Positions 535 through 36,754 are shown, counted from the stretch's first letter. The stretch: 64,000 nucleotides of DNA from Planctomycetota bacterium (GCA_029260825.1 JAJDCM010000382.1:1221-65220), one strand, 5' to 3'. Numbers and translations: made by a program. Notes: generated by a model not told the origin, from the sequence alone.

Positions 535-1317
535 TCAGAGCCGGTGGCGAATCGCCCACAGATCAGGGAACACCGGGTGAAACAACGACTTTTTGAGGAA
601 TTTGACCCCCAAGGTTCCGGCAGTTCCTTGCTTGCTTCCGATGGTACGCTCCACCAGCTTGACGTGGCGGTAGCGCCATTCCTGAAGCCCTTCGTCCACG
701 TCCGTCATGGCCTCGATGAGGTAGGTCATTTCCGGAACGTCACGATAGAGCTGAAGAACACAGTCTTGAATCGTGGTATTCGGGACCGTCGGAAGAGTGA
801 TGTCCTTTTCCCGAAGTTCGGCCGGTATGGGAGCACCTCGTTTTTCCAGAAGGTCGTAGAAATGATCGACCACCGATTTTTCTGCCAATCGTTTCTCGAC
901 TTTCGCGTAGCCCGGCGTGCCACTCTGAAGCAGACGCAGGGTGTCCGGTCGCTTGTAGCCAAGAACACACTCGATCTCTCGAAACTGCGCAGACTGAAGA
1001 CCGGAGGCCGTGTCCAAGCGCACCCGAAAACTCGTGAAGTGCATCGGCGTCATTGTCTCCAGGATGTCGACCTGAGAGACAAGTGTCTTCAGGACCATGC
1101 GGACTCTCTTCCACGTGGCAATCGAGCCGAAGAGATCATTGTCAGAGAAGTCGGTCTTGATCTTGTCGATCTCATGAAGAAGCAATTTGAACCACACTTC
1201 ATAGGCCTGATGGATGACGATGAACAGCATTTCATCGTGTTCCGGGGGATCGGATTGTGCTTCCTGCAGGCCAAGGAGTGTCTCAAGCTTCAAGTAGTCG
1301 GGGTAGGTAAGAGTCAT
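535..1317 (-). CDS. kynA: Tryptophan 2,3-dioxygenase
   Basis: 260-aa ORF with the TDO-family N-terminus (YPDYLKLETLLGLQ...IHQAYEVWFKLLLHE). It is 9 nt downstream of kynU on the same strand. Confidence 0.85.
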   Translation of the reverse strand: MTLTYPDYLKLETLLGLQEAQSDPPEHDEMLFIVIHQAYEVWFKLLLHEIDKIKTDFSDNDLFGSIATWKRVRMVLKTLVSQVDILETMTPMHFTSFRVRLDTASGLQSAQFREIECVLGYKRPDTLRLLQSGTPGYAKVEKRLAEKSVVDHFYDLLEKRGAPIPAELREKDITLPTVPNTTIQDCVLQLYRDVPEMTYLIEAMTDVDEGLQEWRYRHVKLVERTIGSKQGTAGTLGVKFLKKSLFHPVFPDLWAIRHRL

Positions 1318-1326
1318 TATTTGCTC

Positions 1327-2616
1327 TCAGGAAATTCGGTGAGAAAGAGCCATCGCGAACTCCCAGACATCCTGGAAAGTATTGTACAGAGGGACGGGAG
1401 CGGCTCGAATGACGTTCGGGGGTCGAAAATCACAAGTGATTCCCGCCTGGCCAAGCGCGGCAAGACGCATTTTTGGATCGTCGTTCACAAGAAGAGAAAG
1501 CTGACATCCACGTTCGCTCGGTTGATCCGGAGAGACAATCGAAACCACGCCGTCTCCGAGTTCCTTCAGGAGAAACTCAAGATATCCGGTCAACAGTTCG
1601 GACTTTCTTCGCAAGGCCTCCATCCCGACCTCATCAAAAATTCGAAGAGAGGAAAGGAGTGGGGCCATGGAAAAGATCGAAGGATTCGAGATCTGCCAGC
1701 CATCGGCTCCAGCGCGGGGTATGAAATCGGCGACCTCATCCATCTGAAATCGGGTCTCCGGATCGTTTCCCCACCATCCTGCAAATCGAGGAAGATCGAG
1801 ATTGTGGCCATGACGTTCATGAACGAAACAACCGCCCACCGCTCCCGGTCCGGAATTCAGATATTTGTAATTACACCAGGCGGCGAAGTCGACGTTCCAG
1901 CGATGAAGTTCGAGAGGAACGTTGCCTGCCGTATGAGCCAGGTCCCAGCCGACCGTGCATCCTTTTGCCTGAGCAAGCTGGGTGATGCGCTCGATGTCAA
2001 AAAGCTGGCCGGTCAGGTATTGAACTCCGCTCAGAAGGACGAGCGCAATCCGCTCTCCTTCGTTCTCAAGGATCTCTTCAATGGTGGCAAGAGGAATGGT
2101 TGATTGACCGCTCGGCGGCCGGGCAATCAGCAAGGCCGCTTTGGGGTCAAGACCATGGTGAATCAACTGAGTCGACGTCGCATAGCCGTCGGACGGGAAG
2201 GCACGGTCTTCGATCAGGATCTTGTATCGTTTCTTGGTGGGGCGGAAGAAGGACACCATCATCAGGTGCAAGTTCACCGTCAGGCTGTTCATCATGACCA
2301 CTTCACCGGGAAGGCCGCCCACGAGACGAGCCCCCATCTCGCGGAAACATTCATGATAAGAGAACCAATCGGGGTCGGCTTCGAAATGCCCCTCAACTCC
2401 CAGCTTTGCCCAGTCGGAAAGAAGCCGCTCCATCTGGGGGCCGACGGCCTTGGGTTGAAGGCCCAGTGAGTTCCCGCAGAGATAGACGGACGGGGTGCCT
2501 CCTTCCCGCTGTGGGATATGGAATTGATCCCGCATCGAAGCGAGCGGGTCGTTCGCGTCGAGCTGCTCGGCGCAGCTTCGGTTGACGTCGAATGGTGAGG
2601 TCGATGTTGAGCCCAT
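1327..2616 (-). CDS. kynU: Kynureninase (PLP-dependent)
   Basis: 429-aa ORF with kynureninase-family conservation (VYLCGNSLGLQPK, YKYLNSGPGAVGG). It lies 5 nt downstream of the ACMSD gene. Confidence 0.85.
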   Translation of the reverse strand: MGSTSTSPFDVNRSCAEQLDANDPLASMRDQFHIPQREGGTPSVYLCGNSLGLQPKAVGPQMERLLSDWAKLGVEGHFEADPDWFSYHECFREMGARLVGGLPGEVVMMNSLTVNLHLMMVSFFRPTKKRYKILIEDRAFPSDGYATSTQLIHHGLDPKAALLIARPPSGQSTIPLATIEEILENEGERIALVLLSGVQYLTGQLFDIERITQLAQAKGCTVGWDLAHTAGNVPLELHRWNVDFAAWCNYKYLNSGPGAVGGCFVHERHGHNLDLPRFAGWWGNDPETRFQMDEVADFIPRAGADGWQISNPSIFSMAPLLSSLRIFDEVGMEALRRKSELLTGYLEFLLKELGDGVVSIVSPDQPSERGCQLSLLVNDDPKMRLAALGQAGITCDFRPPNVIRAAPVPLYNTFQDVWEFAMALSHRIS

Positions 2617-2621
2617 CTCGG

Positions 2622-3644
2622 TCAGTTTGACTCCCCGAAGACGTCTTTTTCTTTCAGTCCCAAGAACTCCAGAGGAGTCTTCACCAGCATCTGGTGCTTT
2701 ACTTCGTCCCCGATGTCGGAAAGAGAATCAACCAGCTTTCCAGGTTCCGCTTCCCCCAAAGGAAAAGGATAGTCGGATCCAAGGGCGATGCGCTCGGGCC
2801 CGATGAGGTCGATGAGCCCTCGAAGAGCAAATGGATCGTAAACCGCAGTATCCACGTAGAATTTACCGATGTAACTCCTGGGACTCTTGTCGTTGTCAAC
2901 GGCACACAAGTCGGGGCGAGCGTTGAAGCCGTGTTCGATTCGTCCAATTGTCCAGGGGAATGAGCCCCCGCCATGAACGAACAGAAGCTTGAGTTTCGGC
3001 AGGCGTTCGAGAACACCACCAAAGATCATCGAGCTCAGGGCCAGGGCGGTTTCCGTGGGCATTCCCACCAGCCAGGGAAGCCAGTACTTCTTCATGCGAT
3101 CCTTGGCCAACATGTCCCAGGGATGAACCATGATGGCAGCGCCAAGCTCTTCGGCACGGGCAAAGACAGGGAAGAGCTCTTCCGCATCAAGGTTCCAATC
3201 GTTGACGTGGCTTCCGATCTGGACGCCGCACATGTTGAGCTCGCTCATACATCGTTCGAGCTCTTTGATGGCAAGGTCCGGAGCCTGCATGGGAAGGGTC
3301 GCGAGTCCTCCAAAACGTCGGGGACGATCCTTGACGATCTCGGCGATGTGATCGTTGAGAAGCCTCGAGAGATCGTGACAATCATCGTGCTTGGCCCAGT
3401 AGCCAAACATCACCGGCACCGTGGAGAGGACCTGGTACTGAACCCCGAGCTGATCACATTCTTCTTCTCGTTTCGCCGGGCTCCAGCAGTTCTCCTTGAT
3501 CTCACGAAAAAAGGTATCGTCCACCATCATTCGAGCGAATCCAGGTCGGTGGTGCTCGAGTCGGACAAATCCGCCGTAACCATACCGATCTCGAAGATCG
3601 GGCCAGGTTTCAGGCAGAATATGAGTGTGTAGATCGACCTTCAG
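2622..3644 (-). CDS. 2-amino-3-carboxymuconate-6-semialdehyde decarboxylase (amidohydrolase-2 family), probable CUG start
   Basis: The track ORF 2622..3530 aligns along its whole length to ACMSD (VRENCW, TLPMQAP, KYWLPWLVGMP, HGGG.FP.T.GRI.HGF). The in-frame sequence upstream of the first AUG encodes (L)KVDLHTHILPETWPDLRDRYGYGGFVRLEHH, which is the metal-binding HxH N-terminus of ACMSD. No AUG, GUG or UUG lies in frame back to the upstream TAG. A CTG at 3644-3642 sits 7 nt after a GGAGG Shine-Dalgarno. Confidence 0.75.
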   Translation of the reverse strand: MKVDLHTHILPETWPDLRDRYGYGGFVRLEHHRPGFARMMVDDTFFREIKENCWSPAKREEECDQLGVQYQVLSTVPVMFGYWAKHDDCHDLSRLLNDHIAEIVKDRPRRFGGLATLPMQAPDLAIKELERCMSELNMCGVQIGSHVNDWNLDAEELFPVFARAEELGAAIMVHPWDMLAKDRMKKYWLPWLVGMPTETALALSSMIFGGVLERLPKLKLLFVHGGGSFPWTIGRIEHGFNARPDLCAVDNDKSPRSYIGKFYVDTAVYDPFALRGLIDLIGPERIALGSDYPFPLGEAEPGKLVDSLSDIGDEVKHQMLVKTPLEFLGLKEKDVFGESN

Positions 3645-3770
3645 GGCAGGACCTCCATCTTGCGTCGCTGGAATCGGATGAATTTTCCGTACCCTAGCAA
3701 AACACCATCTGGACTGCCAGCTCCCATCCCCCTCGATCAGAGCCGAGGGGGCCGACCTGAGGCGGGGAAC

Positions 3771-3998
3771 CTACTGGGTCGCCCCGAGTGCATCCAGGAT
3801 CTCTTGATCCTCCGGAAAACGATCGTCTTGCTCGTGCTTGCTGAAGACCATCTTGCCGTCTCGTTTGACGTCGAAAATGCCGCCACTACCTTCGATGAGC
3901 TCGGACTCGATTCCCAGTTTTCCCTTCAGGAATGCCGCCAGACTGGCGGCTTTTGGGTGATAGTCTCATTGAACGCAGTACGTGATTGAAACGTGCAT
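3771..3998 (-). CDS. SelW-like (Rdx family) selenoprotein with in-frame UGA (Sec) at codon 11
   Basis: AAGGAGG lies 7 nt before the ATG at 3998. Translation is MHVSITYCVQ-U-DYHPKAASLAAFLKGKLGIESELIEGSGGIFDVKRDGKMVFSKHEQDDRFPEDQEILDALGATQ, stop TAG at 3773-3771. It has the CxxU redox motif and the GGxF..DG...F SelW fold pattern. The TGA is at 3968-3966, and a perfect hairpin GCCGCCA-GAC-TGGCGGC begins 16 nt downstream of it. Not in the ORF track because of the TGA. Confidence 0.7.
3934..3950 (-). other. SECIS-like stem-loop (7-bp GC stem, 3-nt loop) 16 nt 3' of the in-frame UGA of the SelW-like gene
   Basis: Plus-strand sequence is gccgcca gac tggcggc. This is the position expected for a bacterial SECIS, inside the coding sequence immediately after the Sec codon. 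Confidence 0.5.
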
Positions 3999-4036
3999 CT
4001 TGAGTCCTCCTTTTGGCTTTCCATGTTGAAGTTTCT

Positions 4037-5614
4037 TCAGTTCTTCGGGTTTCCGGATTCAGGTTGGTTCGAATACAGATAGCCGAGTTCTTTCAATCGT
4101 TGAATCGCGCTTTCGCTCAGAGTTCCGGAGTCGCCGTCGAAATCATCCGGTTTGCCATGGGCACTCCGACGGATTTGAAAACTCTCCCAGTCCTTGCGAA
4201 GTCGACTGTTGAATTCAACCAGATCGGGAAACCTACTTTCCTTGATTGAGGATTGGTTCTGACTTTCCTGGGGATCCTTCTTCAGGTCGAATAACTGGTC
4301 GATTCGACCGAGATTTCCCTCCGGATCGACCTTCGAGAGGTCCTCAAGCCAGCCCTCCATATCTTCCCCGACTTGAGGGAAGTGAAGGATGTACTTCCAA
4401 TCCCTACTGACCAGGGCGTACTGCTTTCGTATCCCGCCTTCGAGGTAATAGACCGGATCATTCTCCTCCTTGCTTTCATCTCCTCGAACCAGGTTCACGA
4501 GACTGTTTCCGTGAAAACCACGTTCGGAAGGAAGGCCGGCAAGCTCGAGTAAGGTGGGAGCAACATCGACCAGGTTGACCGGTCTCTTGATGACCTTTCC
4601 AGCCGGGAGTTTCTGGGGATAGCTGAGAATCATGGGGATGCGCATCACTTGTTCGTAGAGAACCCCGTGGCCAAAGAAATCATGTTCACCAAGACTTTCC
4701 CCATGGTCGGAAGTGATCAACACGACGCATTCTTCAAGGAACCCTTCACGGTCCAGCCGCCGAAAGAACCGTTCAAGTTCCTGGTCGACGAACCCGACTC
4801 CTCCATCATACTGGGCGTCCAGAAAACCGGTGGGATTCTCCGGATCTTCCCGATCTTTGGCCACGAGATGGGCAGAGATCACTCCGAACTGATCGGTTCC
4901 TTCCCGGACTTCATAGCGTCGATCCTTCTTCCCCTCATAGATAGCATCCCCTACGAATTTTTGATCAAAAGGAGAAGGAGGGGCAAAAGGACCGTGAACA
5001 TCGAAACAATGAAGAAAGAGGAAGAACGGATCGTCACCGTCCCGCTCGGTCAGCCAGTCAAGAGAACGATTCGCGACCTGTCGGATGCCGCCGTCCGAGT
5101 CGACCTTGTCGTTCATGCCCGCCTCCGGGTCAAACTTCATGAAGCCCTGATGAAAGCCAAGCTGAGGTACGAGCCACGGAGTATCAACGAACGCTGCCGT
5201 GTCGTATCCCGCTTCGAGAAACCGCTCGGCAAGAGTCGTCTCCGCGGCATCAAGGAGCCAGTGGTGAAAGCTCTGGGGGTTTTCGACGGTGACCTCTTCA
5301 ACGGGCCTTCGGTACAACGCTGGATAGTTACCGGTGAGCATCGACATATGGGCGGGGACGGTCCATGGCGCCGAAGTGTAGGCCCGATCGAACCGGACTC
5401 CATCGCGGGCAAGTCGATCCAGGAAAGGGGAGGTAGCTCGAGGATGCCCGTAGCTTCCCAACCGATCTGCCCGAAGAGTGTCGATCGAGATGAGGATCAC
5501 CGAAGTTCGCTTGGGCGTCGGATCCGCACCACACGAAGAAAGAAGGAGCAAGGACACGATCCCCATGAAGACAGGAAAAGGAGCCCTTGGGCTGGGGGAG
5601 TCGGTTCCGTCCAT
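4037..5614 (-). CDS. Sulfatase-family (alkaline-phosphatase superfamily, LtaS/phosphotransferase-like) lipoprotein
   Basis: 525-aa ORF with a signal peptide and lipobox (LLLSSCG). It has the sulfatase-fold N-terminus (ILISIDTLRADRLGSYG...AYTSAPWTVPAHMSMLTG), but the CxPxR formylglycine motif reads T-V-P-A-H. A Thr nucleophile is typical of LtaS, EptA and OpgB-type enzymes rather than true sulfatases. Confidence 0.75.
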   Translation of the reverse strand: MDGTDSPSPRAPFPVFMGIVSLLLLSSCGADPTPKRTSVILISIDTLRADRLGSYGHPRATSPFLDRLARDGVRFDRAYTSAPWTVPAHMSMLTGNYPALYRRPVEEVTVENPQSFHHWLLDAAETTLAERFLEAGYDTAAFVDTPWLVPQLGFHQGFMKFDPEAGMNDKVDSDGGIRQVANRSLDWLTERDGDDPFFLFLHCFDVHGPFAPPSPFDQKFVGDAIYEGKKDRRYEVREGTDQFGVISAHLVAKDREDPENPTGFLDAQYDGGVGFVDQELERFFRRLDREGFLEECVVLITSDHGESLGEHDFFGHGVLYEQVMRIPMILSYPQKLPAGKVIKRPVNLVDVAPTLLELAGLPSERGFHGNSLVNLVRGDESKEENDPVYYLEGGIRKQYALVSRDWKYILHFPQVGEDMEGWLEDLSKVDPEGNLGRIDQLFDLKKDPQESQNQSSIKESRFPDLVEFNSRLRKDWESFQIRRSAHGKPDDFDGDSGTLSESAIQRLKELGYLYSNQPESGNPKN

Positions 5615-5671
5615 TTCTTCCTTAGCAACCTTTGAAGATAGAAGACTTGAGCCCGATCCGGCGCAGATGAC

Positions 5672-6577
5672 TCATGAGTTCGTCGTCACTCGGGCACGAA
5701 GACTTTGGAGTCGAAAGGATCTGAGGCTCGCCAGGGTGCCAAAGCCGGCTCCCAGCAGACCAATGCCGGCTCCACCAAAAGAGCCGACCCAGGTCATTAT
5801 CTTAGGAGAAATGATGCCGTGCGCAACCTCGAGTTGAACGGCGGCCATGCCAAGAAGAAAGATGGCCATGAGAAGCTGGAGGAAATACACGCCTCGAACC
5901 CTGAAAAGCCGATGTCGCTCCATCTCACGAGCGAGCTCCTCCCCGGCCGGCCCGGACTCCGGGAGGGCTTGAGGCGCCAGGACTTCTCGACGGACCCAGA
6001 ACATCGAAATCAGCAAGGTGACGAGTCCGCAGCCCTCGAAAAGGAAAGCGTTCAGCACCCAGTTTCCCGCAGTTTCCGAGGTGACGGTGACCATCCTCCA
6101 GATGAAAAGAGAAAGGGCCAGGACAGCGAGGAGCGGGAAGAGGACTCGGGACCACCCGGGGAGGTCCTTCGCGACAGACCGCCTGGTGAGGCTTGCCGTT
6201 CGAACCGAGCCGGTCGGGGTCACGGGCTCGATTCCCTTCTTCGACCGAGAAGCTCTCTCGTGCTTGCGGATGAGCACAAAGGAAAAGGGCCACCAGATCC
6301 CGTGAAACACGAGAAGCTGGGAAGCATTGAGGATCGATTTTCTGTCTCCTGCTTGGATCGCCTCGGCGTCGAGAATCATCCAAACAAGGAAGGCTACTCC
6401 GGCGAGCCCGGTTGCCAGGAACAGCCGGGTTCGATCGGGTGCAATGCACTGTTCCACTTCATCGCGAACCTCTCTTTTCAGGTTGCGACGGGCCCTACTT
6501 AGATAGAAAACCGGTACCAGGCTCACACCAAGAAGAATTCCAAATTGAATCATCGAGTGAATAAGAATGGGGCTCAT
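5672..6577 (-). CDS. Polytopic membrane protein of unknown function, 4-nt overlap with the upstream GntR regulator gene
   Basis: 301 aa with several hydrophobic segments. ATGA start/stop overlap with the GntR gene at 6574-6577. The plus-strand alternative 5705..6502 is low-complexity and charged. Confidence 0.6.
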   Translation of the reverse strand: MSPILIHSMIQFGILLGVSLVPVFYLSRARRNLKREVRDEVEQCIAPDRTRLFLATGLAGVAFLVWMILDAEAIQAGDRKSILNASQLLVFHGIWWPFSFVLIRKHERASRSKKGIEPVTPTGSVRTASLTRRSVAKDLPGWSRVLFPLLAVLALSLFIWRMVTVTSETAGNWVLNAFLFEGCGLVTLLISMFWVRREVLAPQALPESGPAGEELAREMERHRLFRVRGVYFLQLLMAIFLLGMAAVQLEVAHGIISPKIMTWVGSFGGAGIGLLGAGFGTLASLRSFRLQSLRARVTTNS

Positions 6578-6963
6578 GCCTGGATCTCCTTTGCCCAGCG
6601 ATCGATTTCTTTTGTGAGTAGCTTCTTCACCTCTGGAAACGGAAGCCCGGAAAGTCGCGCTTCGGTAAGAATCTCCCGAAGCTTTGCCTGGATCCGGCCT
6701 CGAGTCGATTCCCCCTCCCCTGAGGGGCCATCCGTCGCCACCGTCACGCCCTTTCCACGTCCCACCTGAAGTAGCCCCTCGTCCCGAAGCTTCCGGTAGG
6801 CTCGGGCCACGGTGTTGAAGTGGATTCCAAGATCCCCGGCGAGCTGCCGGACCGAAGGGAGAGAATCTCCCGGGCCGAGCTCTCCTCGAGCAATGGTCTC
6901 CCGAATGCCCCGTCGGATTTGCTCCTCAAGGGGGATCGAACTTTCAAGGTCAACGGTGAGCAT
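6574..6963 (-). CDS. GntR-family (YtrA-like short) transcriptional regulator
   Basis: 129 aa with a winged HTH (LPSVRQLAGDLGIHFNTVARAYRKLRDEGLL) and a short C-terminal effector region. Confidence 0.8.
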   Translation of the reverse strand: MLTVDLESSIPLEEQIRRGIRETIARGELGPGDSLPSVRQLAGDLGIHFNTVARAYRKLRDEGLLQVGRGKGVTVATDGPSGEGESTRGRIQAKLREILTEARLSGLPFPEVKKLLTKEIDRWAKEIQA

Positions 6964-7084
6964 GGTTACGCTGTATCATCTATTGGTACAGTACGTCAAG
7001 CAGCTTGGAAGGTTCAAAAATCGGGCCAAAATCGGCGGCGGGAGCGTATTGACGAATCCGGGGGAAAGAGAAAACAATAGACCC

Positions 7085-8983
7085 ATGGTGAATCCAGGCA
7101 TGACCGAGGCAGCACTTCATGTGCAAAAAGGACCGGCGCGACCCAGCCGGGTGCTCCTTCGTGAGGATCTCCTGTTAATCGGGCGATCCGAGGACTGCGC
7201 TCTCATCTTGCTGGATGATACCGCCTCCCGTCACCATGCCAGCGTCGAGCGGACCGAGGATGGCTTTCGTTTGAAAGACCTGGGATCTTCAAATGGAACC
7301 TTCGTGAACGGAGACATGAATCCAGATCGACTCCTCATCGAGGGGGATGAGATCCGGATCGGCTCGGTTCACCTTCAATTCAGCCTGAAGGCCGGGCGGA
7401 AAACGATCATCGTCGAGGAAAAAGAGGAGAGTCCGACAACTCTGAGGGTTGAAACCTCCATACCCGGCCCCACGTTTGATCCCACCGAGGGCGATGACGA
7501 TGACGGGCTTCTTCGACGACTGAAAACACTTTATCGGGTAAACACGGCTCTTTCCCGGTGCCTCGATACGAACGAACTCCTCCTCGAGGTCTTTCGGAGT
7601 CTGACGGAGGTCCTTCCGTTTGAGCGAGGCGCGGTCTGGTACAGCAAGGGGGGGCAAACAAGACCTTTGATCTACTACCAGCGAGAAGACGAAAATCATC
7701 GCCCGTTTCAGGTGAGCTCGACTCTTCTCCAGCGAGTGCTGGTGAGCAAGGAAGGCGTCCTCGTTCGGGATGTTCTCGAGGACGAAAAACTCCGAGATCG
7801 CCGGAGTGTTCTTCTGGGTAGTACGCTCTCCATCGCTGCAGTGCCTCTTCTGGTTGAGGGCAATTGCATGGGAGTTCTCTACATCGACTCAACCCTGGTC
7901 GATTCCTTTTCTCCCGAGGATCTCGAATTGCTCCTGGGCCTGGCATGTCCCACCGGGCTGGCGATCCGCAACGCGGAAACTTTCACCCGAAAAGACCAGG
8001 AAGCTCATCGACTTCGCCAGGAGCTTACGACTCACCACCGAGCCATCGGTGATTCTCCCGAATTCAAGGAGGCGCTTTCCCTCACCGAGAAGGTGGGGCC
8101 GACGGACACCACCGTCCTCCTGCTCGGAGAGACCGGAACAGGTAAGGAGATTCTTGCCCGGACCATCCACAATCTGAGCACCCGAAGAGAAGGGCCCTTT
8201 GTCCCGGTGAATTGTGCGGCGATTTCTCCCTCCCTCCTTGAAAGTGAACTCTTCGGTCACGTCAGTGGAGCATTCACCGGAGCTCATCGGGACGCTCCGG
8301 GTCAGTTCAGGCTGGCTGACGGCGGCACATTATTCCTGGATGAAGTCGGGGAAATGCCCCCCGAGCTCCAATCAAAGCTTCTTCGAGTTCTCGAGGAGCG
8401 CGAAGTTCGTCCGGTGGGCGCCGATCGCACCGTGGCGATCGACATCAGGATTCTTGCCGCCACGAACCGGGATCTCCAGGGCGACATCGAAACCGGTGGC
8501 TTCCGCGCCGACCTCTACTATCGCCTGGGTGTGATGCAGATCAACATTCCACCTCTTCGGGAGCGAACGGGAGACATCTTGCTTCTCGCTCGATCCTTCC
8601 TTGACGCATTGCGAGGCGGCCTGGGGAAGCATCCTTCTGGCTTCTCTTCGGAGGCAGCAGAGATCCTAGAGCGGTATCCTTGGCCGGGAAATGTGCGAGA
8701 GCTTCGCAATGTGGTGGAAAGAGCATCCGTTCTTGCCGCAGGAGAGCAGATCAAACCGAGAGATCTCCCCGATGATGTCCGTCGGAGCATCCAGGGCGCT
8801 GGGGGTGGGCGCTTCGATGACCCGGCCGGGGATGAACCCATCTTCTCTCTCAAGGAAGCGGAAAAGATCGCCATTGAGAGGGCCCTCCAGAAGACCGGGG
8901 GGAGAAAGGGGGAGGCTGCCAAACTCCTCGGTACTTCCTGGCCAACCCTGACGAAGAAGATCCGAGAATACGGGCTGGATTGA
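7085..8983 (+). CDS. Sigma-54-dependent transcriptional activator with N-terminal FHA and GAF domains (FHA-GAF-AAA+-Fis HTH)
   Basis: FHA region LIGRSEDCALILLDDTASRHHASVE...LGSSNGTFVNG. AAA+ region GETGTGKEILARTIHNLSTRREGPFVPVNCAAI...GAFTGA. C-terminal HTH KGEAAKLLGTSWPTLTKKIREYGL. Start chosen at ATG 7085 because the track ORF start at 6812 overlaps the divergent GntR gene. Confidence 0.85.
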   Translation: MVNPGMTEAALHVQKGPARPSRVLLREDLLLIGRSEDCALILLDDTASRHHASVERTEDGFRLKDLGSSNGTFVNGDMNPDRLLIEGDEIRIGSVHLQFSLKAGRKTIIVEEKEESPTTLRVETSIPGPTFDPTEGDDDDGLLRRLKTLYRVNTALSRCLDTNELLLEVFRSLTEVLPFERGAVWYSKGGQTRPLIYYQREDENHRPFQVSSTLLQRVLVSKEGVLVRDVLEDEKLRDRRSVLLGSTLSIAAVPLLVEGNCMGVLYIDSTLVDSFSPEDLELLLGLACPTGLAIRNAETFTRKDQEAHRLRQELTTHHRAIGDSPEFKEALSLTEKVGPTDTTVLLLGETGTGKEILARTIHNLSTRREGPFVPVNCAAISPSLLESELFGHVSGAFTGAHRDAPGQFRLADGGTLFLDEVGEMPPELQSKLLRVLEEREVRPVGADRTVAIDIRILAATNRDLQGDIETGGFRADLYYRLGVMQINIPPLRERTGDILLLARSFLDALRGGLGKHPSGFSSEAAEILERYPWPGNVRELRNVVERASVLAAGEQIKPRDLPDDVRRSIQGAGGGRFDDPAGDEPIFSLKEAEKIAIERALQKTGGRKGEAAKLLGTSWPTLTKKIREYGLD

Positions 8984-35291: not shown

Positions 35292-35377
35292 GCCCGGGTG
35301 GCGGAATTGGCAGACGCGCTAGATTGAGGGTCTAGTGGCCTTTATTGGCTGTGGGGGTTCAAATCCCCCCCCGGGCA
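35292..35377 (+). tRNA. tRNA-Leu (anticodon GAG), class II with long variable arm; CCA not encoded
   Basis: Acceptor GCCCGGG/CCCGGGC with discriminator A. Anticodon stem CTAGA/TCTAG with loop TTGAGGG. Long variable arm. T-arm GGGGG-TTCAAAT-CCCCC. Confidence 0.85.
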
Positions 35378-36754
35378 CTCCCAAACGGATATCAATCCAC
35401 CTCCGCTCTTGGCTTCGACTCTCCCCACACCCTTCCCGAATCGATATCGAACGTCAGACTGACTCGCGGTTTCGGGAAGCCCGGATGGAACGTTGACCTT
35501 GATTCGCCCCATGTTCGTCACGGCTTGGAGTGTAAGATCTGGCGAATTCGGGAGCTGAAGGTCAATGGGCCCAAAGGATGTCTCCACGACCCAGTCGACC
35601 GGCTTTCCTGCTGATTCAGCAGGAGATGCCCAGCTGGAAAGTGAAATGGAACCGGATCCAGTTCGAGCCCTGACCCGACCCAGATCACCGTCAATGATCA
35701 GGGGGCCGGCCTTGGCCTGAAGGTCGACATCTCCCCGAAACTGGGTGACCGTGACGTCTCCCGACTCTGAAACGCCAACGAGCCGTCCCGAGGAGTTCAG
35801 GATTTCCATCGACCCGGCACCGCTTCGGAGATCGAGTTGAGTCCCGTTCGAGCGATCGACGTGGATGAAGCCCGACCCCGTTTCAACCCAGGTCACTCCA
35901 TGGGTCCCGATCAGGGTCACGTCACCGATGCCCGCGCGCAGAACCGATTTCTCTCCGGTGATATTGTGAGCCTGGAGCGCCCCTCGGTCCGTGATGAGCT
36001 CGACTTCTCCGGCAACGTTCGATGCCTGAATGGTGCCTTCCTGTGTGTGAGCAAGAAGGTGAACGCATTCCAGGTTATCCAGCAGGAAAGAACCCGTCGT
36101 GGCGATCATCTCGACGCGCTCGGCCCTGGATGCCATCAAGCTGCCTCCACCCGAATCGACCTGGCAGCGGATGACCGATCCCGTGATTCGGGCCGCGTCA
36201 ATCTTCCCCTTTCCAACTGCGGCAAGCAGATTTCCTCGAACTCCGGAAACGACGATGTCTCCAACGTTCGTAGCAAGCTCACAGCTGTCGAAAGGGCCAA
36301 GGGCAGTGATCGCCCCCTCGAGCGCCTTCACATTCAAACGAGTGTGATTCGGAACGGTGATGTGGAGATGAATCTCGTACGCCCCGCCATCTTCGACGGT
36401 GGATCCCCCCTGAAGGACGATCGCTCCAAACTCCTCCTCGAGGCGTAGATCGATCTCGTCCAGCCGCTGATTGGCCTCTTCCTCCGATCCGGAGAAAGCG
36501 ATGATTTCAGCAAAGACAGAGAGGGTTGGGTCCGGCGAGGCCACGATCCGAACCCGCCCTCGAGGATTGCGGACCGTGATCGGCGTTCCTGTCGGCAGAG
36601 GGATGTTCAGCTCACGAATTTCTCCGTAGGGTTCCTTTGCCTCGTATTTGAGACCACCCCATGGAAATGAGGCGCAGCCACCGATGCAAAGAGCAAAGAG
36701 CAGGCCAGAAAGAGAAACCAGCAGTCGGGGTCGATGGACGTCGGAATTCGTCAT
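35342..36754 (-). CDS. Lipoprotein with repetitive beta-rich (DUF4097/adhesin-like) C-terminal region
   Basis: Lipobox LFALCIGGC, then repeated G/S/T-rich beta-strand units (GDVTL.., GSGSISL..). The last 11 codons are antisense to the 3' end of tRNA-Leu. Confidence 0.6.
   Translation of the reverse strand: MTNSDVHRPRLLVSLSGLLFALCIGGCASFPWGGLKYEAKEPYGEIRELNIPLPTGTPITVRNPRGRVRIVASPDPTLSVFAEIIAFSGSEEEANQRLDEIDLRLEEEFGAIVLQGGSTVEDGGAYEIHLHITVPNHTRLNVKALEGAITALGPFDSCELATNVGDIVVSGVRGNLLAAVGKGKIDAARITGSVIRCQVDSGGGSLMASRAERVEMIATTGSFLLDNLECVHLLAHTQEGTIQASNVAGEVELITDRGALQAHNITGEKSVLRAGIGDVTLIGTHGVTWVETGSGFIHVDRSNGTQLDLRSGAGSMEILNSSGRLVGVSESGDVTVTQFRGDVDLQAKAGPLIIDGDLGRVRARTGSGSISLSSWASPAESAGKPVDWVVETSFGPIDLQLPNSPDLTLQAVTNMGRIKVNVPSGLPETASQSDVRYRFGKGVGRVEAKSGGGLISVWECPGGDLNPHSQ

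Follow-up and report, generated by a model that had tools for sequence, protein, structure and literature searches.

A candidate CUG start codon in an ACMSD gene that appears intact in a Planctomycetota bacterium

Introduction

The closest described counterparts of the gene analysed here encode human ACMSD (structures 2WM1 and 4OFC) and the eukaryote-like bacterial ACMSDs of Planctomycetota, Bacteroidota and Xanthomonadales. Our gene lies in 64 kb of DNA from a Planctomycetota bacterium (GCA_029260825.1 JAJDCM010000382.1:1221-65220), and the whole of that stretch is called the window below. Its product belongs to the same family, has the same length and keeps the metal-binding and catalytic residues; as in the bacterial counterparts, genes for kynureninase and tryptophan 2,3-dioxygenase (TDO) share its kynurenine-pathway operon. 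It differs from them in having no ATG, GTG or TTG at its start, and in having a SelW-like gene upstream rather than 3-HAO.

Rare non-canonical starts are already known from bacteria, CUG starts among them, and a CUG start here would be a further example. The start codon of Escherichia coli infC is AUU, which has a known autoregulatory role through IF3. Of the annotated starts in model genomes, 99.95% are ATG, GTG or TTG and ~0.05% are all other codons, and CUG initiates at 1-2% of the AUG level in E. coli (10.1101/063800). In Deinococcus deserti, one CTG and one ATC start have been confirmed by N-terminal peptides (PMC4007540). The window gene shares with the infC and Deinococcus cases a near-cognate codon one base from AUG and a Shine-Dalgarno leader. 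Low-level initiation with Met would be expected here as well. A Shine-Dalgarno motif followed by CUG is no proof of use, because such a site in Caulobacter dnaA gave a toeprint and is unused in vivo (PMC8443254).

Genes with frameshifted or mis-assembled 5' ends provide another comparison. Like them, the window gene has an out-of-frame ATG 14 nt upstream, from which a single base restores a homologue-like N-terminus; unlike them, it lies in 64 kb where no other frameshift is seen, the run of C is only 3 long, the ATG has no Shine-Dalgarno motif and the CTG has a strong one. The programmed +1 frameshift of prfB (at CUU UGA) is similar in that a Shine-Dalgarno-like element precedes a codon followed by UGA (here GGAGG-N5-CCC UGA). 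The window differs from both prfB (+1) and dnaX (-1), however, and we reject a programmed ribosomal frameshift: the ACMSD frame needs a shift of -1 (or +2), and there is no slippery heptamer of the form X XXY YYZ in CUG CCC UGA. A +1 shift at CCC UGA is rejected too, as the frame that it enters is closed after 10 more codons.

The ACMSD reading frame

In a three-frame translation, the ACMSD frame on the minus strand is open from TAG 3773-3771 to TGA 2624-2622. It reads ...Q* (TAG 3773-3771) VPRLRS...ATQDGGPA-L-KVDLHTHILPETWPDL... before it closes, and the segment L-KVDLHTHILPETWPDL opens with CTG 3644-3642. The features of this region, all on the minus strand, are:

2622..3644, minus strand: ACMSD coding sequence read from CTG, 340 codons plus the TGA stop at 2624-2622 (from translation, Pfam and the human alignment)
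3642..3644, minus strand: CTG, the candidate initiation codon, opposite human Met1 and at the start position of homologues
3651..3656, minus strand: Shine-Dalgarno-like GGAGGT, with GGAGG at 3656-3652, 7 nt before CTG
3641..3658, minus strand: out-of-frame mini-ORF, ATG GAG GTC CTG CCC TGA (MEVLP*)
3644..3646, minus strand: CCC run, where a fourth C would bring ATG 3658 into the ACMSD frame, yielding MEVLPLKVDLHTH
3621..3629, minus strand: HxH metal-ligand motif, CAC ACT CAT, His6-Thr7-His8
3528..3530, minus strand: ATG, the first in-frame canonical start, which gives the recorded 302-aa product P0001
3771..3773, minus strand: TAG, the upstream in-frame stop, which is also the stop of the SelW/Rdx-like gene

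Neither the ORF listing nor the translation contains an ATG, GTG or TTG in the ACMSD frame between TAG 3773-3771 and ATG 3530. A sequence-only reading of this DNA had placed the HxH N-terminus upstream of the first in-frame AUG and had noted that no AUG, GUG or UUG lies in frame between that segment and the upstream stop. Both statements hold: the ORF as listed spans 2622..3530, and a start at ATG 3530 removes 38 residues, among them H6 and H8 (KVDLHTH). The product on record has just this form. P0001, a 302-aa protein with 100% identity from an NCBI contig of 102,111 bp, starts at ATG 3530 and has none of the first 38 residues.

Integrity and identity of the enzyme

Read from the CTG, the protein matches the Pfam family Amidohydro_2 (PF04909) over profile positions 1-289 of 289 (residues 3-330, E 1.7e-45), and only when read from there is the profile complete. 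It aligns without a gap to residues 1-334 of human ACMSD (2wm1/4ofc, E ~1e-140), with the CTG opposite Met1, so the N-terminus that begins at this codon is indeed collinear with eukaryotic ACMSD, as had been claimed. In that alignment H6, H8, R47, H174, H224, R235 and D291 (human numbering) all fall at identical positions. From published ACMSD structures we take His6, His8, His174 and Asp291 to be metal ligands, and Arg47, His224 and Arg235 to be catalytic or substrate residues. To retain His6 and His8, translation has to start at 3644 or upstream of it.

The closest solved structures are ACMSDs rather than other decarboxylases of the superfamily: E values are ~1e-140 for human ACMSD and ~4e-68 for Pseudomonas ACMSD, and 5-carboxyvanillate and gamma-resorcylate decarboxylases match at 1e-25 or weaker. 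By its sequence, then, the gene is a complete, intact ACMSD (EC 4.1.1.45) and is predicted to be functional. Automatic gene calling truncates such genes, and the recorded 302-aa product is without the catalytic HxH motif. Whether the start is the CUG or a one-base indel has hidden an ATG, full-length ACMSD, and not a 302-aa fragment, is the right annotation for the product.

The gene order in the window is SelW-like gene, ACMSD, kynureninase and TDO (535-3998, minus strand). The two genes downstream of ACMSD are:

1327..2616, minus strand: kynureninase gene (Pfam KYNU_C and Aminotran_5), same operon, starting 5 nt after the ACMSD stop
535..1317, minus strand: TDO gene (Pfam Trp_dioxygenase, E 7.5e-57), same operon

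The kynureninase is 55% identical to that of locus L002. Elsewhere, 3-HAO lies directly upstream of ACMSD (L001/L002, L059 and L070), and KMO and TDO follow at a greater distance downstream in L001/L002; the 64-kb window contains no 3-HAO or KMO gene.

Sequence context of the CTG

The CTG was reported to lie 7 nt after a GGAGG motif, and it does, with the spacer tcctgcc. Scored as a match to the Shine-Dalgarno core, the element is 6 nt long (GGAGGT) with a spacing of 6 nt. Matches of at least 6 nt at a spacing of 3-13 nt occur at 1.8% of random window positions, versus 4 of 31 provisional gene starts (13%), where the starts are our own choices. Within the 126-nt gap, CTG-3644 is the sole in-frame near-cognate codon with a Shine-Dalgarno motif. 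The neighbouring SelW-like gene has the same geometry, AAGGAGG-N7-ATG. The GGAGG motif alone is not strong evidence, because it is common in the window, with 234 copies on both strands. Nor need a CTG before the Lys codon be a start, since many homologues have Leu at this place as an internal residue like any other (MLKID, PLKID), often encoded by CTC.

Other signals were sought around the gene. The predicted fold of the 166-nt leader is no better than that of shuffled sequence (z = 0.03), no Rfam family was found near the ACMSD gene, and no sigma-70-like promoter was found in 3400-4200. The GC content at third positions of the 5-6 codons concerned, in either frame, is rejected as evidence; the codons are too few. 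Between the SelW-like gene and ACMSD there is a strong 9-bp GC hairpin, CCCCCUCGG-loop-UCGAGGGGG (3728-3751, minus strand), which is not followed by a U-tract and may separate the two genes as a terminator or a processing structure.

Start codons and N-termini of homologues

N-terminus classes were counted over 119 homologues, using their predicted starts. The aligned codon, directly before Lys, is the predicted start in 55 of the 119, and the N-terminus is one residue longer, mostly ML-K, in another 12. Extensions of five residues occur in 14 of 119, and extensions of six residues likewise in 14 (~12%), about half of these with PLK (MSSPLK, VADAPLK, MRERPLK). Among the 15 homologues nearest by distance, the start is at the aligned codon in 13 and one codon upstream in 2. 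In a neighbour-joining tree the window sequence branches deep, beside neither N-terminus class, so that only the nearest-distance lists are usable.

At the DNA level, the aligned codon is ATG in L057, L058, L067, L068 and L073, GTG in L053 and L063, and TTG in seven loci (L074, L070, L055, L056, L061, L062 and L066). L074 encodes the closest homologue, P0003, and its TTG is one transition from CTG. L065 also has TTG at this codon, with an in-frame ATG 12 nt upstream that makes its start ambiguous. The literal first residue of 50 JGI homologues is V in 25 and L in 4, which corresponds to GTG or TTG in 29 of 50; these residues are as predicted by gene callers, in a set of sequences that is phylogenetically clustered. 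Weak starts appear to be usual in ACMSD homologues, a point that we treat as a lead and not as a result.

It had been suggested that an AUG at the equivalent position in orthologues would imply a point error here. The comparison does find ATG, GTG or TTG at the equivalent codon, in orthologues with 62-74% identity. Because they are no closer than that, an AUG among them does not refute a CUG start, and it is no proof of an error in the window. Nothing above 73% identity came from a full-length search of a 5.8-billion-protein database, from a search with the N-terminal 120 aa or from a contig scan of GTDB species genomes, and a lineage-specific degenerate DNA pattern had 0 matches in JGI metagenomes. 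One homologue, P0002 (ENA, on a contig of 819,588 bp), is 493 aa long and contains an internal tandem duplication of ~155 residues (ACQDLDMAIFVHPWDMM...GKLINGMPWSE twice), which has either arisen in the assembly or is a real feature of the gene.

JGI metagenomes were also scanned with a DNA pattern anchored on the N-terminus, independently of gene calls, giving 17 loci. One of them, L059 (Ga0255057_10064279, positions 1-330), encodes an unrelated, independent ACMSD of 64% identity and has no canonical start that keeps the N-terminus. The TGA stop of 3-HAO is followed by 36 nt without ATG, GTG or TTG in any frame, and then by AAG ATC GAT CTT CAC; the N-terminal stretch as a whole is ATC CTT AAG ATC GAT CTT CAC (ILKIDLHTH). 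The first canonical in-frame start is a GTG, which, like ATG 3530 in the window, deletes the HxH motif. Many homologues have an aligned ATG CTG AAG (MLKID) where L059 has ATC CTT AAG, so L059 is likely to initiate at AUC. An indel cannot explain this second case.

Initiation at CUG

Our best explanation, which we hold with moderate confidence, is that the window encodes a complete and functional ACMSD whose translation begins at CUG 3644-3642. The initiator tRNA would pair with this near-cognate codon, positioned by the GGAGGU Shine-Dalgarno element 6-7 nt upstream, and the protein would begin (f)Met-Lys-Val-Asp-Leu-His-Thr-His. The CTG would then be the fourth NTG variant at a codon that is ATG, GTG or TTG in homologues, and a single substitution in TTG (or ATG) would be its most likely origin. 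If E. coli is a guide, initiation would be weak, at a few percent of AUG, so the cell would make little ACMSD compared with the kynureninase and tryptophan dioxygenase encoded downstream. The earlier proposal that ACMSD appears to initiate at CUG thus stands in so far as the CTG is the best in-frame candidate and the sole one with a strong Shine-Dalgarno motif; that ribosomes actually initiate there is something we infer. If real, this would show a bacterial CUG start clearly in a natural setting, on an enzyme whose dosage decides how much goes to NAD synthesis and how much to tryptophan catabolism.

Alternative explanations

The sequence-only reading had weighed a true non-canonical start against an error at the CTG. 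That list was incomplete, having missed the out-of-frame ATG 3658-3656 and with it a one-base indel. This ATG overlaps the GGAGG (ATGGAGG), 14 nt upstream of the CTG, and its frame ends in TGA 3643-3641, which overlaps the CTG (cTGa). One added base, most simply a fourth C in the run 3646-3644, turns it into the start of MEVLPLKVDLHTH (ATG GAG GTC CTG CCC CTG AAG...), whose six extra residues are of the (M/V)xxxPLK type known from homologues.

It is possible, and in our view somewhat doubtful, that ATG 3658 is the true or ancestral start and that one base has been deleted, either as an assembly error or in a genuine recent frameshift, with GGAGG then merely codons 2-3. The position of the ATG fits well: it is 17 nt before the Lys codon, and L054 and L069 start with GTG at exactly 18 nt before it. 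The repaired N-terminus fits the (M/V)xxxPLK[IV]D class, with many PLK among the 14 six-residue and 14 five-residue extensions of the 119, and no stop interrupts the mini-ORF frame before the junction. The frequency of GGAGG in the window and the ordinariness of Leu before Lys, both described above, point the same way. An out-of-frame ATG, GTG or TTG is nevertheless to be expected by chance within ~30 nt in roughly half of cases (our own estimate), and the 15 nearest homologues are in the class with short N-termini, not in the extension class. Moreover, there is no Shine-Dalgarno match before ATG 3658, an absence seen at 1 of 31 provisional gene starts versus 30% of random positions, and the 6-nt match before the CTG would have to be the 1.8% coincidence.

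The state of the assembly also bears on a deletion. About 40 other genes in the window were checked, and wherever a family was found no Pfam match was split or truncated, so none shows a frameshift; ~5 of the genes matched no family. A separate Logan assembly of run SRR15505514 (L052) shows 100% identity to the window along a 3031-bp stretch (4964-7994) and ends 1.3 kb from the CTG site. Because of these two observations, a local assembly error at the CTG is unlikely a priori, and a run of three C is no typical error hotspot. By a rough estimate, the prior rates of a CTG start and of a one-base indel are similar, ~1e-4 per gene each, and the likelihood, again roughly, favours the CTG position over the indel by 1:1 to 10:1, depending on how far the post-hoc ATG/Pro coincidence is discounted. 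If the indel is what happened, the case is of interest for an annotation or assembly note only.

A broader proposal, speculative and in our judgement unlikely, is that ACMSD translation is deliberately throttled at initiation across this bacterial clade, of which the window would be the extreme case. The start position varies between ATG, GTG and TTG in homologues and has CTG here; 29 of 50 JGI homologues are called with GTG or TTG, and L059 probably uses AUC. With little ACMSD, less ACMS would be diverted from cyclising spontaneously to quinolinate, which would protect NAD synthesis with the remaining operon fully expressed. As a variant, the mini-ORF (AUG...CUGA) might feed the CUG by termination-reinitiation.

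We consider it improbable that the start codon has simply been lost, that is, that a TTG or ATG became CTG by a very recent mutation or a base-call error, so that the gene is in effect silent, a pseudogene in the making, or the assembly is wrong at one base. The change from TTG is a single transition, TTG is the start in the closest homologue, and CUG is the poor start in E. coli described above (1-2% of AUG; 10.1101/063800). The rest of the ACMSD gene is nonetheless undecayed, its operon partners are intact, and consensus substitution errors are rare in an assembly that is otherwise clean. Further, weak GTG and TTG starts appear usual among ACMSD homologues and a second lineage (L059) is also without a canonical start, which argues for tolerance of weak initiation rather than for gene loss.

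Coupled translation has still less in its favour. Ribosomes translating the mini-ORF from ATG 3658, or a 28-codon ORF from ATG 3727, would stop at UGA 3643-3641 and restart on the overlapping CUG (CUGA), with the GGAGG holding them there, which we think very improbable. The 4-nt CUGA overlap does share its geometry with the common AUGA coupling overlap, and the ORF 3727..3641 is present in the same frame as the mini-ORF. Against this, neither ATG 3658 nor ATG 3727 has a usable Shine-Dalgarno motif, and comparative support is absent. L059, the other case with no canonical start, has no such mini-ORF. Finally, a 302-aa protein that starts at ATG 3530 and is without the first 38 residues is scarcely credible: this is the first canonical in-frame start and the one in the recorded product P0001, but it has no Shine-Dalgarno motif upstream, it deletes His6, His8 and beta-strand 1 of the barrel, and the 38 codons upstream of it are in frame and 60-70% identical to homologues.

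The SelW-like gene and other features of the window

Upstream of ACMSD, the SelW/Rdx-family gene (3771-3998, minus strand) contains an in-frame TGA at 3966-3968 in a C-V-Q-U motif (MHVSITYCVQ*DYHPK...), and a 7-bp GC-rich hairpin follows 15 nt after this TGA, at 3934-3950. The protein matches Pfam Rdx (E 4e-16) once C is put in place of U; ORF lists split the gene into fragments. From these sequence features it looks like a bacterial selenoprotein gene with a SECIS-like element.

The SelW-like gene and ACMSD (3641-3998, minus strand) are in one frame, separated by TAG 3773-3771 and 42 sense codons, and L059 has the same layout, with one TGA between its 3-HAO and an ACMSD in the same frame. We reject the idea that ribosomes read through the SelW TAG into ACMSD: a shared frame is expected one time in three, and ascertainment favours it further, because a close in-frame stop is what makes a missing start visible. 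The shared frames of SelW-like gene and ACMSD in the window and of 3-HAO and ACMSD in L059 are probably due to chance plus this ascertainment. The only RNA gene found in the window is a tRNA-Leu (anticodon GAG) at 35292-35378 on the plus strand.
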